Shown here one piece after another: positions 14,094-46,382 of a DNA stretch of 53,408 nucleotides (the stretch's first letter is position 1; the number at the start of each line of letters is the position of its first letter). Position numbers and translations under genes: made by a program. Location of the stretch: NCBI GenBank assembly GCA_041659585.1, contig JBAZXY010000001.1:1-53408 (forward strand), given 5' to 3'. The notes beneath the pieces are model-generated. The model saw nothing but the letters and a program-made list of their open reading frames with translations, was not told the origin of the DNA and ran no database searches. This DNA is from Parcubacteria group bacterium. GTDB lineage: Bacteria; Patescibacteriota; Minisyncoccia; Moranbacterales; UBA2206.

Positions 14094-14148
14094 ATAAAAG
14101 ATGTTGGAGGCTCACATAAACCCCATGTATAGTGGGTAAAAAAGAAAA

Positions 14149-14175
14149 TTAGCACTCGGACTTGACGAGCGATAC
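14149..14175 (+). promoter_or_regulatory. CIRCE-like element with degenerate right arm (putative attL core)
   Basis: TTAGCACTC-GGACTTGAC-GAGCGATAC, against the CIRCE consensus TTAGCACTC-N9-GAGTGCTAA. Confidence 0.5.
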
Positions 14176-14192
14176 AGAAGAAATAAGCACAA

Positions 14193-14219
14193 TTAGCACT
14201 CGCCGAACGAGAGCTGGAA
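14193..14219 (+). promoter_or_regulatory. Second CIRCE-like element with degenerate right arm
   Basis: TTAGCACTC-GCCGAACGA-GAGCTGGAA. Confidence 0.4.
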
Positions 14220-14225
14220 ATTATA

Positions 14226-14252
14226 AACCTAATCGAAAGATTAGGTTTTTTT
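14226..14252 (+). terminator. Rho-independent terminator
   Basis: AACCTAATC-GAAA-GATTAGGTT followed by TTTTT. Confidence 0.7.
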
Positions 14253-14270
14253 GTTTTTCTGGAGGGATTG

Positions 14271-14344
14271 ATTGATGTGGCGTAATGGAATACGCGTTGG
14301 TCTTAGTCAGCCAAAGAATGGAGTTCGAGTCTCTATCATCAATC
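14271..14344 (+). tRNA. tRNA-like gene with non-canonical geometry (8-nt anticodon loop CTTAGTCA); identity unassigned
   Basis: 7-bp acceptor ATTGATG/CATCAAT. D arm GCGT-AATGGAAT-ACGC. Anticodon stem TTGGT/GCCAA. T arm with loop TTCGAGT and a 6-bp stem. No encoded CCA. Confidence 0.5.
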
Positions 14345-14410
14345 TCCCCAGCAGAACAAAAATAAAAATAATTAAAAAGCTTTTGGGGTGAAAAAGCCAA
14401 AAAAAGCAAA

Positions 14411-15025
14411 ATGCGTAAAAAAATCAAGGACCTAGCGAAAAGAGTGTGGCAGGCAGCAATTATCAAATCGTGGAAATGGTTTCGCAAGTGGCTCAACAGA
14501 TCAAGATTCGTTTTGTTTCTCGTTGGACTGGTAATCGGAGGAACTTTCACCTATTGCTACATCCTCCTGGACACGACCTACACCGTGGTTATTTACAACA
14601 ATTCTCCGATTGAGGCAGCTAGAGCGGAAACACTGGAAACTGCGACAGTCGAGGAGAAGGAAGAAAAAACATCTTACGCTATCGAGATCGTCAAGAAGAT
14701 TGCCAAAGAAGAAGGTATTGATTGGAAATTGGTTTATGCGGTGTGCTTGAAAGAGTCCGGATGCAAAATTCCCAATTGTTCAAAGGCTCGGGGAAATTGT
14801 GACGGTCTGCAATCGATGGGACCCTATCAAATCCACAAGCCTTCCCACCCGGACATCACAGAAGCGCAAGCCAATGATCTGGCATGGTCAACCCGCTGGA
14901 CAATCCGACACGGAATCCGATATCAAGACAATCCGGCCCTGTTTTTCAAAAATCACAATGGCATCGGAAAAACCACCAATCAGTGGTATGTGGACGGCGC
15001 GATGGAGATTTATAAAAATATTTAA
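14411..15025 (+). CDS. Membrane-anchored lytic transglycosylase (SLT-like)
   Basis: N-terminal TM segment. Catalytic-type motif AVCLKESG, followed by GPYQI and a C-terminal Y-rich motif. Confidence 0.55.
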   Translation: MRKKIKDLAKRVWQAAIIKSWKWFRKWLNRSRFVLFLVGLVIGGTFTYCYILLDTTYTVVIYNNSPIEAARAETLETATVEEKEEKTSYAIEIVKKIAKEEGIDWKLVYAVCLKESGCKIPNCSKARGNCDGLQSMGPYQIHKPSHPDITEAQANDLAWSTRWTIRHGIRYQDNPALFFKNHNGIGKTTNQWYVDGAMEIYKNI

Positions 15026-15031
15026 AAAATA

Positions 15032-15226
15032 ATGGATAATAAATGGCTAAAATATCCCGATGATGAGGCCAGTTATGCCCAAAGAAGGACTATTCGAAAA
15101 ATATTGGATTATCTGGGACTGAGCGAGGGGTGGCTGTATGCCGGCATAAAAAAATATATCAACGCCCTAACCATGAAGGAGGCGGACAACGTAATTAAAA
15201 AACTTTCTCAAATAAAAAAGAAATAA
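15032..15226 (+). CDS. Hypothetical phage protein
   Basis: ORF tightly packed in a co-directional block. No motif. Confidence 0.45.
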   Translation: MDNKWLKYPDDEASYAQRRTIRKILDYLGLSEGWLYAGIKKYINALTMKEADNVIKKLSQIKKK

Positions 15227-15227
15227 A

Positions 15228-44349: not shown

Positions 44350-44543
44350 GTTTTCGGTGGCCGACAAAAAATTTCATCCAGCCTTTGAGACTTCGTACTA
44401 TTTTTCCTCTACGTACTACGAAGTTACAATACATGTAACCATCGTCTCCGCGGAAGCATTGTTGTCCTTCATGAAGATCCACCATAAGCGTACCTCCTTT
44501 CCGTCTCTCCTAATTTTACAGTTACCTTTTCAATGAACAAAAA

Positions 44544-44662
44544 AACACCAACTTTGACAGTCCCTCCACGAAGCTTCGTTTATTTCTAAACTCACCTAAC
44601 GTGGACTTTACGGGTCCCCCGAAGTATTTCTACATCGTGGAGATCCTGTCAAAAATGGTGTT
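44544..44662. repeat. Long imperfect inverted repeat / roughly 120-nt hairpin
   Basis: AACACCAACTTTGACAG pairs with CTGTCAAAAATGGTGTT at 15 of 17 positions. Inner helices are CTCCACGA/TCGTGGAG and CTTCG/CGAAG. Confidence 0.55.
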
Positions 44663-44953
44663 GTGTTTAGGAAATTAGACTGTCATCTTAATTGCCATCC
44701 GTAAAATGGCTTTGATATAGACACTACATATAGTGGTACCTGATACTATTATACCACAATTGGAAAATCCGCCAAGTTTTTGTCGAATGACGCATTTTTC
44801 CTAGTAATTTTCAATTTTACGGCAAAGTTATCCACACCCCCCCCAAGAAATATGATTGACAAATAACGGTATGAAGTGTTAGTGTTCTATATTAAAAATT
44901 TAAAATCATTTTTGCCTGTGGCTTCGGCCAGTGCTTTTGAAAAAAAAGTATTT

Positions 44954-44982
44954 TTGCAGACAGGGTCAAAGTGGTGTAAAAT
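44954..44982 (+). promoter_or_regulatory. Candidate integrase promoter (TTGCAG-17 nt-TAAAAT with TG extension)
   Basis: The TGGTGTAAAAT sequence is identical to the rpsP -10 region. Confidence 0.4.
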
Positions 44983-45034
44983 ATTAGTAGCTAAGTAAAT
45001 TAGTCTTCACGGACTAACCTTGCTTTGCTGCAAC

Positions 45035-45093
45035 ATACAACACCCCGTTGAAACCTAGGTCTGCAAACCGAGGGAGTAGGCGGGGTGTTGTAT
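45035..45093 (+). promoter_or_regulatory. 13-bp perfect stem-loop in the integrase 5' leader
   Basis: ATACAACACCCCG (45035-45047) pairs with CGGGGTGTTGTAT (45081-45093), ending 4 nt before the int ATG. The only SD-like GGGAG sits in the loop. Confidence 0.55.
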
Positions 45094-45097
45094 TATT

Positions 45098-45970
45098 ATG
45101 TTCAGCAAAAAAATGTGTGAATTTTTTGAACCATTCATAGATTGGTCCATTCGCATGGGAAAAGCAGAGTCAACAATCAAAGAATATCGTAGGATGTTCA
45201 ATGGTCCACTTCAAACAATCTCAAAAATAAAAATAAACAAGTTCAAGATGAAAGATGTTTCCTTTGCAGTGGAGGCAGGACAGCAGTATGGAAAATATGG
45301 AGAAGAAAAAGCAGTGATCACGCTGCGGTCACTAATCAGGTTTATTAAGGAAAATGACCATGAATTTCCGATTGATTGGCGTGACATCAAAGGACGGAAG
45401 AATCAGCGCCCTGAGGTGCAATATTTGACCCCTGGCGACATTGAAACGCTCCGAACGACAATAGACACGGATTCGCCCAGCGGACTCCGTACGAGGGCAT
45501 TATTTGAACTTCTACTGCATTCGGGATTGAGGATTGGAGAGGCCATCACGCTAGACATTGCCGACATTGATTATGACAAGATGGAAATGCATATTGTGAA
45601 TTGCAAAAATAAAGTGCATCAAACCGTGTTTCTGACTGACGGGGCTGTGGCATGGCTAAAAAAATATCTGGCGTCAAGACGTGATACAGAACCGTGCCTT
45701 TTTATCTCCGGCGGCGGAAGAAGATTGCTGGCGGTGACAGCGCGTGCTTCACTCACGAAATATGAAAAGATGAGCGGATTGAAAAAACACATTCATTGGC
45801 ATCTTTTGCGAAAAACCTTTGTCACCAATCTGCTTTTCGGGGGAGTGGACATCAAGACCACGCAACATTTGGCGCGGCACACTTCGGAAATCACCACCCT
45901 CCGGCACTACGCGGCCATCAATCACCAAGAGGAAAGATTGCTTTTGACTAATGTCATGGCCAATGTTTAG
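45098..45970 (+). CDS. Tyrosine recombinase / phage integrase
   Basis: GLRIGEAITL (box I Arg), HWHLLRKTF (H-x-x-R) and ARHTSEITTLRHY (catalytic Tyr region). Confidence 0.9.
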   Translation: MFSKKMCEFFEPFIDWSIRMGKAESTIKEYRRMFNGPLQTISKIKINKFKMKDVSFAVEAGQQYGKYGEEKAVITLRSLIRFIKENDHEFPIDWRDIKGRKNQRPEVQYLTPGDIETLRTTIDTDSPSGLRTRALFELLLHSGLRIGEAITLDIADIDYDKMEMHIVNCKNKVHQTVFLTDGAVAWLKKYLASRRDTEPCLFISGGGRRLLAVTARASLTKYEKMSGLKKHIHWHLLRKTFVTNLLFGGVDIKTTQHLARHTSEITTLRHYAAINHQEERLLLTNVMANV

Positions 45971-46018
45971 CTATTAAAAATGTTGACGGCTAGTGGTCTT
46001 TAGGAGTATAATGGTGGA

Positions 46019-46204
46019 ATGAAAAGACCAGGACAGCCAATCGACATGAAATCCGTCATTAAAGTGCAGGAGTATCTGGATAAAGGGTTGAACCAGTACG
46101 AAATTGCACGAGTGATGAACACCACAAGACAGCAAGTAAATCGCTGGGTTTTTTACATTAAAAGAGGCGTGCTTGAGCCAAAAGATGATACTGTTGACAC
46201 GTAA
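46019..46204 (+). CDS. Small HTH DNA-binding protein (excisionase/regulator candidate)
   Basis: LNQYEIARVMNTTRQQVNRWV helix-turn-helix. Adjacent to the integrase. Confidence 0.5.
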   Translation: MKRPGQPIDMKSVIKVQEYLDKGLNQYEIARVMNTTRQQVNRWVFYIKRGVLEPKDDTVDT

Positions 46205-46222
46205 TAGGGAAAATGCTATAAT
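46194..46222 (+). promoter_or_regulatory. Perfect consensus promoter (TTGACA-17 nt-TATAAT, TG-extended) facing outward from the prophage right end
   Basis: TTGACA at 46194-46199 and TGCTATAAT ending at 46222. Confidence 0.6.
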
Positions 46223-46356
46223 GTACTTAGTAGTTTGAAAACAGAATAAAAATGAAATGTTTTGCATCTATCTTTTTGCCGCTGATTAATTCGGCTCTAA
46301 AGAAATTGATGCAAGATACTTTCGATTAGATTTATAAATTTCATTCTCTCCTCAAA

Positions 46357-46382
46357 TTAGCACTCGACTTGACAGAGCGATA
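46357..46382 (+). promoter_or_regulatory. CIRCE-like element with degenerate right arm (putative attR core)
   Basis: TTAGCACTC-GACTTGACA-GAGCGATA. Near-identical to 14149-14175. Confidence 0.5.

Follow-up and report, generated by a model that had tools for sequence, protein, structure and literature searches.

The window analysed here is an entire public contig of 53,408 nt, in which a block of phage-type genes separates host genes on the left from the heat-shock genes hrcA, grpE, hsp20 and dnaK on the right. The locus raises the question of which site this block occupies and how it came to be there. Positions 14170-46430, with one copy of the attachment (att) core counted, very probably represent the 32,261-bp genome of a temperate tailed phage that integrated by Campbell recombination into the CIRCE (controlling inverted repeat of chaperone expression) operator of the hrcA-grpE-hsp20-dnaK operon, which would thus be its bacterial attachment site (attB). 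The host is an uncultivated Candidatus Moranbacteria bacterium of the candidate phyla radiation (CPR/Patescibacteria). CIRCE is widespread in bacteria, has the consensus TTAGCACTC-N9-GAGTGCTAA and has been described as the repressor operator of HrcA regulation. A preliminary description of this DNA had proposed a prophage with this operator as attB; the empty sites of related genomes, the phage attachment site (attP) of a relative and independent integrations in other hosts agree with that proposal. It had also regarded CIRCE as an unfamiliar class of attB, and we found no description of CIRCE as attB or as a recombination target in the literature.

The junctions and the host locus

The two junctions (attL on the left, attR on the right) and the host genes around them are as follows.

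13207-13455, + strand: yidD, host gene (Pfam YidD, 4e-29)
13580-13981, + strand: 133-aa open reading frame (ORF), the last host gene before attL, with no family match
14146-14169, + strand: attL core AAATTAGCACTCGGACTTGACGAG; host homology stops at 14169 and phage DNA (CGATA...) runs from 14170
14149-14175, + strand: hybrid operator at attL, with CIRCE left arm and spacer intact, a right arm of phage type (GAGCGATAC) and no -10 box downstream
46407-46430, + strand: attR core AAATTAGCACTCAGACTTGACGAG; phage homology stops at 46430
46410-46436, + strand: perfect, regenerated CIRCE, TTAGCACTC-AGACTTGAC-GAGTGCTAA, with 0 mismatches
46423-46451, + strand: hrcA promoter TTGACG-17-TATAAT (11/12 matches), whose -35 box (TTGACG) lies within the CIRCE spacer, the presumed crossover region
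46605-47342, + strand: hrcA, host gene (TIGR00331, 217.7 bits against a cut-off of 197.2; Pfam HrcA)
47394-51423, + strand: host genes grpE (47394-47984), hsp20 (48070-48486) and dnaK (49501-51423), assigned with Pfam

The sequence at 46410-46436 is a CIRCE in the full sense: a consensus inverted repeat over a class I heat-shock promoter, in a genome that encodes HrcA. The CIRCE pattern with up to 3 mismatches has 3 matches in the window against 0.02 expected, and the half-site TTAGCACTC occurs 6 times against 0.19 expected. The repeat family at the element ends comprises three copies; compared ungapped with the left copy, 46407-46435 (the perfect CIRCE) is 90% identical and the copy at 46354 is 76% identical. 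The 24-nt attL and attR cores are identical at 23/24 positions with zero gaps. No tRNA gene was found at either junction or in the empty site, the tRNA-like genes of the locus being phage-internal.

Empty sites in related genomes

Species-representative genomes were scanned with HrcA, which yielded 25 loci, nearly all labelled Candidatus Moranbacteria/Moraniibacteriota or Parcubacteria/Patescibacteria group. All 25 are unoccupied at the site, the integrase and the other phage proteins tested having no homologue there, and 23 of them carry a 27-nt CIRCE-like site with TTGAC in its spacer, 48-238 nt upstream of hrcA. yidD lies 0.1-1.2 kb upstream of hrcA in 18/25 genomes, namely those where it was detected. 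In the window, yidD does stand on the left of the element, as first described, although one gene further out, with the 133-aa ORF (13580-13981) adjoining attL.

The closest empty sites are those of contigs L001 and L002, which an exact-protein look-up found to encode an HrcA identical to that of the window. Both show the uninterrupted arrangement that the preliminary description had suggested looking for: yidD, a small ORF (85% identical to the 133-aa ORF and in the same position), a single CIRCE (TTAGCACTCGCACTTGACGAGTGCTAA in L001) and hrcA, with nothing between. L001 is from the same species as the window: 8.8 kb of left flank match at 99.3-99.6% identity and the right flank at 96%. On the left, homology extends as far as window position 14169 (L001 9826), and on the right it sets in at window position 46408 (L001 9804), so that the two overlap by 23 nt of L001. 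Since homology stops at 14169 and resumes at 46408, the right boundary is the perfect CIRCE and not the copy at 46354. A further contig, L003, matches the left flank of the window at 100% identity and breaks off precisely at the final base that attL and attB share. De Bruijn assemblers end contigs at branch points of this kind, which hints at a mixture of occupied and empty sites in that sample.

attP of a related phage and the Campbell scheme

A search with the integrase returned 26 homologues, among which P0002 (91% identical) lies on the 24-kb contig L032. There, the integrase gene, a helix-turn-helix (HTH) gene, a promoter, a hairpin, a CIRCE-like site (site A), the core (site B), another CIRCE-like site (site C) and a terminator form one uninterrupted stretch with further ORFs, and no host DNA intervenes. 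Upstream of the L032 integrase, ORFs occupy the positions of the window's tail genes, and L032 6071-7519 is 67% identical to the N-terminus of the window's tail fibre. In nucleotide alignments, L032 9959-11317 corresponds to window 45071-46430 (P arm) and L032 11294-11412 to window 14146-14259 (P' arm); the 24 nt at L032 11294-11317 belong to both. The order is site A TTAGCACTCGACTTGACAGAGCGATAT - cggtaaaaactcattgcgctcatc - AAATTAGCACTCGGACTTGACGAG CGATAT... - site C TTAGCACTCCCTTGACAAGAGTAATAA - terminator, and the 24-nt copy consists of the CIRCE left arm, the spacer and the first three right-arm bases (AAATTAGCACTC-[G/A]GACTTGAC-GAG). Together, the empty site and the attP of L032 therefore complete a full Campbell scheme:

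attB: ...gataA TTAGCACTC GCACTTGAC GAG, then TGCTAA aagataatttataatgg
attP: ...atcAAA TTAGCACTC GGACTTGAC GAG, then CGATAT caagg
attL (from 14146): ...gAAAA TTAGCACTC GGACTTGAC GAG, then CGATAC agaag
attR (from 46407): ...atcAAA TTAGCACTC AGACTTGAC GAG, then TGCTAA aagataatttataatgg

On this scheme, the attB junction would read as the host left flank plus TTAGCACTCGGACTTGACGAG plus TGCTAAAAGATAA and the attP junction as ...CTCATCAAATTAGCACTCAGACTTGACGAG plus CGATACAGAAG. The element thus shares its att core between both ends and has an empty attB in relatives, and joined ends in an unintegrated genome were seen in the relative L032 only.

These alignments decide between two placements of the element. 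The preliminary description had bounded it by 29-nt repeats at 14146-14174 and 46354-46382 that differ by two 1-nt indels, with attB 27 nt upstream of the operator, and had suggested that the element may be old or decaying. Both 29-mers are present exactly there, both end in GAGCGATA, and the perfect CIRCE that overlaps the hrcA promoter does follow the second copy after 27 nt. This placement is nevertheless highly improbable: homology to the empty site resumes only at 46408, phage homology in L032 runs through 46383-46430, and the 46354 copy, which four related phages carry in attP or the P arm, is conserved phage sequence, together with the next 24 nt, in L032, L004 and L121. The true attR core is 46407-46430, and the two indels are an artefact of pairing attL with site A, the real cores being gapless. 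Decay is not supported either: the split terminase that had suggested it is kept in the related phage of L005 (at 65-68% amino acid identity), and the close relative L032 is unintegrated.

Crossover interval and the rebuilt operator

Two polymorphic positions delimit the exchange. Position 1 of the spacer is G at attL, where it derives from the host, and A at attR, where it derives from the phage; strand exchange therefore took place to the right of it. On the other side, the attR sites of L004 and L121 read GACTTGACGA followed by CTGCTAA, where right-arm position 3 is a host-derived C (the native GACTGCTAA arm is present in host L024), whereas attP has G there, which places the exchange to the left of this position. 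The crossover interval is thus presumably GACTTGACGA, comprising spacer positions 2-9 and two right-arm bases and containing TTGACG, the -35 hexamer of the hrcA promoter.

As read from the sequence, attR (46407-46451) contains a rebuilt perfect CIRCE and a complete promoter, while attL (14146-14175) is left with a hybrid site that has no -10 box. Promoter and operator of the heat-shock operon are therefore retained, and expression of the hrcA operon would be expected to be unchanged by integration. The closeness to DnaK and GrpE might serve replication of the lambdoid type, as the preliminary description had suggested.

The integrase and its clade

Two phage genes adjoin the att site.

45113-45970, + strand: Xer-like tyrosine integrase, 285 aa (Pfam Phage_integrase (PF00589), 2e-32, 112.8 bits against a cut-off of 27.1; identical to P0001)
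46019-46204, + strand: 61-aa HTH protein with its own promoter (45983-46012), weak HTH matches and a 70% identical counterpart in L004

The integrase ORF spans 290 aa from its first Met, and the public gene call (P0001) starts at the second Met, giving 285 aa. R140, K165, H230, R233, H256 and Y266 are invariant in 8 clade members, which identifies the protein as a tyrosine recombinase. Its closest solved structures are XerA and XerD, and it resembles XerA, XerD and XerC in sequence and length, although it scores far below the NCBIfam cut-offs for Xer equivalogs (XerA 129 bits against 220, XerD 119 against 330, XerC 112 against 335) and is therefore Xer-like in architecture only. Its length, and the fact that it aligns end to end with the two-domain Xer recombinases, suggest that it has no separate N-terminal domain for arm binding. 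The 61-aa HTH protein is a candidate excision or regulatory factor.

Related integrases, or related phage ends, are found at the same operator in other genomes:

L121: integrase 89% identical; attR, then hrcA
L004: integrase 82% identical; attR, in a different host
L005: left end of a related phage; attL, in yet another host
L034-L036: integrase 52% identical; directly before TTAGCACTCTCTTGACAGGAGTGCTAA and hrcA
L123/L124: integrase 51% identical; directly before TTAGCACCCCTTGACCGGGAGTGCTAA and groES (Cpn10)

The sequences of L034 and L036 are the same until CIRCE ends and unrelated from there on; they therefore represent one phage in two hosts. All four junctions of the subgroup to which the window belongs use site B. 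Because the clade is found at the CIRCE of both hrcA and groES, its target is the operator and not the hrcA locus. Downstream of the integrase in L033 (57%) and L125 (42%), no host DNA was found; what follows is CIRCE-like sites whose right arms are degenerate, then a terminator-like hairpin and more ORFs. Both contigs are presumed to be unintegrated. The contig of L122 (50%) ends shortly after the integrase gene, before any att site. By comparison, no CIRCE-like sequence was found near the integrases of L037-L039 (45%, beside pilM) and L126 (40%), which fall outside the CIRCE-targeting group.

These junctions also bear on whether phage and host contigs could have been misjoined through the shared CIRCE-like repeat. 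The junctions do lie in repeated sequence, in a contig from a metagenome bin, but L003 provides an independent assembly of the left junction, comparable junctions of host and phage are found in five other samples and hosts, and both phage ends flank a single host locus in the order expected of Campbell integration. We consider such an assembly chimera extremely improbable.

Further members of the clade were sought in larger collections. A scan of the metagenome collection with the attL/attP pattern gave 0 matches, and a scan of the same collection with the integrase profile gave only distant recombinases (<=38% identical). IMG/VR scans with the integrase, the integrase profile, the P-arm pattern and a replication-protein profile returned only two contigs, L004 and L005. 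No close relative was found in databases of known phages, where identity is <=28% for the integrase and 31%, over a fragment, for the capsid.

Two side observations concern the recombinases and their potential targets. In L122, 1264-3134 holds two tandem tyrosine recombinase genes (331 aa and 290 aa), the second being the one 50% identical to the window integrase. In addition, five of the Moranbacteria relatives carry a second, variant CIRCE (TTAGCACTC-N9-GATTGCTAA) with a spacer that lacks TTGAC (L017 18474, L019 7463, L020 18903, L021 17763, L025 17182); in at least 4 of them (L017, L019, L021, L025), the next ORF begins MxDYYxILG, like DnaJ. This variant could be a further target for the integrase clade.

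CIRCE-like sites of the attP region

Besides the core, the attP region contains the following features.

46354-46382, + strand: site A, phage-internal CIRCE-like site (TTAGCACTC-GACTTGACA-GAGCGATAT), 53-54 nt upstream of the core in L032 (attP), L004 and L121
14193-14219, + strand: site C, third CIRCE-like site of attP (TTAGCACTC-GCCGAACGA-GAGCTGGAA), in the P' arm; the same position is occupied in L032 and L005
14215-14239, + strand: P' half of an inverted repeat bracketing attP, 25 nt, 88% complementary to its partner
46319-46343, + strand: P half of this inverted repeat, partner of 14215-14239
14225-14248, + strand: intrinsic terminator-like hairpin in the P' arm, a 10-pair stem followed by a T run, kept in L032, L005, L033 and L125
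46194-46222, + strand: consensus promoter TTGACA-17-TATAAT with TG, facing the att site (12/12 matches), kept in L004, L121 and L032
46244-46333, + strand: long conserved hairpin (~80 nt) downstream of the 46194 promoter (RNAalifold over 4 phages: 33 pairs, 2 compensatory)

Site A, the core and site C all point the same way, at spacings of 53 and 44 nt; in the attP sites, the left arm is perfect and 6/9 right-arm positions are kept. CIRCE would suit a tyrosine recombinase well as a target. Xer-type sites consist of two inverted ~11-bp arms round a 6-8-bp spacer, and the two 9-bp inverted arms of CIRCE round a short spacer present a layout of the Xer/Cre type. In this lineage, the spacer would also be constrained because the -35 box lies in it, which would give ~27 conserved bp, comparable to a tRNA gene. 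We propose that the 285-aa integrase binds the two CIRCE arms as core-type sites, as their architecture suggests, and that strand exchange within the 10-nt GACTTGACGA would be carried out by the phage's own integrase. Because the integrase appears to have no arm-binding domain, sites A (46354) and C (14193) are most likely accessory binding sites.

Host operators themselves vary in where TTGAC falls within the spacer, and three registers can be told apart: NGACTTGAC and related forms in most species; the spacer GACTTGACA in 4 species, including the closest, L006 (HrcA 95% identical); and TCTTGACAC/G. Compared in register, spacers of the first two types disagree at 7/9 positions, so that one core could not fit both. 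On this basis, sites A, B and C could be alternative cores, each matching one CIRCE register, with which one phage could enter hosts of different operator-promoter spacing. The spacer of site A equals that of the second-register operators, including L006, and the spacer of site B (GGACTTGAC) is of the first type and equals that of 9 species; site C of L032 (CCTTGACAA) is in the third register, as in L029 and the hosts of L034/L036, and L033 has one site in each of two registers. However, an attL made through site A would take the form host plus TTAGCACTCGACTTGACAGAG plus CGATATCGGTAAAAACTC, and no integration through A or C was found, the pattern scans having returned no attR formed via site A and all four subgroup junctions using B. 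Site C is moreover degenerate in both the window and L005, and the extra site of L123 is only a half-site: the phage arm of L123 (2041-2199) and L124 carries a tandem copy of GATGAC(G/A)CTTTCGTTTAGCACCCC. Alternative cores are thus rather unlikely.

HrcA itself might instead bind the CIRCE-like sites and so control integration and excision or the phage transcription that starts at the 46194 promoter, tying the choice between lysis and lysogeny to proteotoxic stress. The perfect operator at attR, the perfect left arms (with 6/9 of the right arm) at the attP sites and a consensus promoter that reads across all CIRCE-like sites would accord with such a role. The right arms, however, are consistently non-consensus (GAGCGATA), which argues for weak HrcA binding, and binding by the integrase explains the conservation of the sites more simply, so that we regard HrcA gating as unlikely. 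Taken more broadly, attP would be an array of operator mimics, either interchangeable cores that widen the lysogenic host range or sites whose occupancy by HrcA switches recombination in response to proteotoxic or heat stress and not to DNA damage; this we put forward as a tentative possibility only. For sites A and C, an accessory role for the integrase itself is the reading we prefer.

Other features of this region are described for completeness. Between phages, the two arms of the inverted repeat around attP change jointly (TTTATAA in the window, TTCATAAT in L032, CAACTAG in L004/L005), and the left arm overlaps the terminator stem. The 46194 promoter lies just after the HTH gene and, in the prophage, reads towards CIRCE and hrcA; in the circular phage, its transcription would cross attP to the terminator at 14225-14248. 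By analogy with lambda sib, promoter and hairpin could provide a small RNA or a sensor of the integration state.

Gene content and integrity of the phage

The element contains ~43 ORFs of >=60 aa, fewer than the more than 50 phage genes counted at first. The genes that had been named were all found, the portal with a weak match and the M23 peptidase in part.

15228-16106, + strand: replication initiator, lambda O-like/DnaD-like (PHROG 270/391, 2.6e-14; Pfam HTH_36)
17493-17843, + strand: RusA-like Holliday junction resolvase (PHROG 34, 3.8e-15)
20905-21741, + strand: terminase large subunit (TerL), N-terminal (ATPase) ORF (PHROG 2, 1.5e-11; 68% identical ORF in L005)
21753-22388, + strand: terminase large subunit, C-terminal (nuclease) ORF, in another frame (PHROG 24361, 1.5e-10; 65% identical in L005)
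23681-25516, + strand: probable portal protein (weak Pfam SU10_portal match, E = 0.001, below cut-off; assigned mainly by position)
26892-28052, + strand: major head protein (PHROG 267, 9.3e-12; nearest known phage capsid 31% identical over 30% of its length)
33984-38981, + strand: giant 1665-aa tail or virion protein, with no family match
41603-42493, + strand: tail fibre with collar domain (Pfam Collar, 6.9e-23; PHROG 9116, 1e-43)
42988-43728, + strand: M23-like peptidase, probable lysin, with only the C-terminal half of the domain matched
44154-44237, - strand: phage-borne tRNA with anticodon GAA (Phe), found by ARAGORN (Rfam 47.6 bits) and folded
14272-14343, + strand: borderline, phage-internal tRNA-like gene, found by ARAGORN (Rfam tRNA 30.0 bits against a cut-off of 29) and folded

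Virion and packaging genes are thus present (TerL in two ORFs, major head protein, tail-collar fibre, and a weak portal match). The two terminase halves are 12 nt apart in the window, and L005 (206-2227) has the same split with an unannotated 113-aa ORF between them; since the split is shared, it represents a conserved arrangement and not a recent lesion. Giant ORFs of 1544-2056 aa, whose homology is unconfirmed, stand at the position corresponding to the 1665-aa gene in L032, L033 and L034. No homologue was detected in the window for the M23 proteins of L034/L036 or for the first L032 ORF past attP, and lysis and first early genes therefore differ between relatives.

The same genes bear on whether the prophage is defective, having lost excision or particle formation. 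The M23 ORF is truncated relative to its domain, neither a repressor nor a holin was recognised, a stretch of 1.4 kb upstream of the integrase gene (43.7-45.1 kb) has little coding capacity, and there is no direct evidence of excision. Against this, the att cores are identical at 23/24 positions, the catalytic residues of the integrase are complete, all large structural ORFs are open, including that of 1665 aa, and L003 breaks at the attL/attB branch point. A cryptic prophage is accordingly unlikely.

Several points weigh against the reading of the element as a temperate phage integrated at CIRCE. attP was taken from the relative L032 and not from this exact phage; the crossover interval is set by the two polymorphic positions described above; and integrase binding to the CIRCE arms is proposed from site architecture alone. 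The clade is small (~10 contigs), the large scans having added few further members. No repressor was identified, the M23 ORF covers only half of its domain and the portal match is weak. Finally, the contig end of L003 is the sole hint of a mixed population.

Some minor features of the phage genes were also noted. A homing endonuclease with NUMOD3 motifs (GIY-YIG/HNH-associated type) is encoded at 33475-33981, directly upstream of the 1665-aa gene. The M23 ORF matches profile positions 46-87 of 96 at its extreme N-terminus, and the upstream ORF at 42701-42970 encodes a separate conserved protein; the peptidase domain seems to be N-terminally truncated. The GAA tRNA is 85 nt long and has a long variable arm, which is unusual for tRNA-Phe. 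The tRNA-like gene at 14272-14343 has an 8-nt anticodon loop (CUUAGUCA), read by ARAGORN as a 4-base anticodon, and lies 103 nt inside attL. An alternative genetic code, prompted by these odd tRNAs, was rejected, as long ORFs read through in the standard code. Attachment linked to the tRNA-like gene was likewise rejected: the empty site lacks this gene, and so does the corresponding place in L032 and L005.

Comparison with known systems

The mechanism appears to be classical Campbell integration by a tyrosine integrase, and the target class appears to be new. Prophages of the lambda, P4 and P22 type use a tyrosine integrase for Campbell integration into tRNA or tmRNA genes. Like prophages in tRNA genes, the window phage has its own tyrosine integrase beside attP, uses a short conserved dyad as attB, and carries part of the target, which is rebuilt at one junction. 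It differs in that the target is a protein-binding operator with an embedded -35 box and in that the integrase is small, Xer-like and apparently without an arm-binding domain. Mycobacteriophage Bxb1 uses a serine integrase to integrate into groEL1 and disrupts the coding sequence; a chaperone locus serves as attachment site in both cases, but the tyrosine integrase of the window would leave gene and regulation intact. CTX phage and other integrative mobile elements exploiting Xer (IMEX) integrate at dif using the host XerC/XerD. A conserved, non-coding, two-arm site round a short spacer, a Xer-type recombinase and a site mimic carried by the element are common to both, whereas the window phage encodes its own recombinase, which scores below the Xer equivalog cut-offs, and targets an operator; it is therefore not an IMEX.

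The nearest published case that we found is that of Bifidobacterium prophages, which integrate in the 3' end of dnaJ2 through a 35-bp core and reconstruct their target (PMC6109161). Their att cores are also imperfect, and a short crossover segment was deduced from an alignment of attL, attR and attP (PMC6109161). They share with the window phage a tyrosine integrase and an atypical, rebuilt target at a heat-shock chaperone locus, but that target is coding sequence in Actinobacteria, whereas the target in the window is an operator-promoter in the CPR (PMC6109161).

The window phage would thus define a new class of attachment site, in which a transcription-factor operator fused to a promoter element offers dyad symmetry under a double functional constraint, and its integrase clade appears to follow this operator, at hrcA and groES, and not a locus. 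With attB, attP, attL and attR all defined, the phage and its host would form a well-resolved temperate pair for the CPR. To our knowledge, CPR organisms are largely without genetic tools, and a candidate for one is the 285-aa integrase, which is compact and whose 24-27-bp target is conserved across a CPR lineage. Because the att sites lie in a heat-shock operator, a link between lysogeny and stress signalling can be tested directly; if true, either reading of the array, as alternative cores or as HrcA gating, would represent a new coupling of site-specific recombination to a host regulatory element.

Additional observations on the host sequence

Upstream of the 133-aa ORF, a lone CIRCE right half-site (GAGTGCTAA on the + strand; 13533-13541, - strand) occurs without a matching left arm. 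It is absent from L001/L002, whose counterpart of the 133-aa ORF has a different N-terminus.

The window also differs from L001 elsewhere. Between hsp20 and dnaK, it is ~500 nt longer (48598-49316 against L001 12052-12262), a strain-specific insertion within the heat-shock operon that holds two minus-strand ORFs (48603-48944 and 48960-49313). About 380 nt of a histidine-kinase-like ATPase gene (9475-10197) are without counterpart in the otherwise 99% identical L001 (9785-10165 against L001 5775-5769). At the right end, the gene content of window 52057-53281 differs from that of L001, and sequence of 60-127 nt from 53282-53408 recurs three times in L001 (15083-15145, 16656-16782 and 19526-19587), between duplicated 2'-5' RNA ligase-like genes; this end of the window may be a repeat-flanked variable cassette region.

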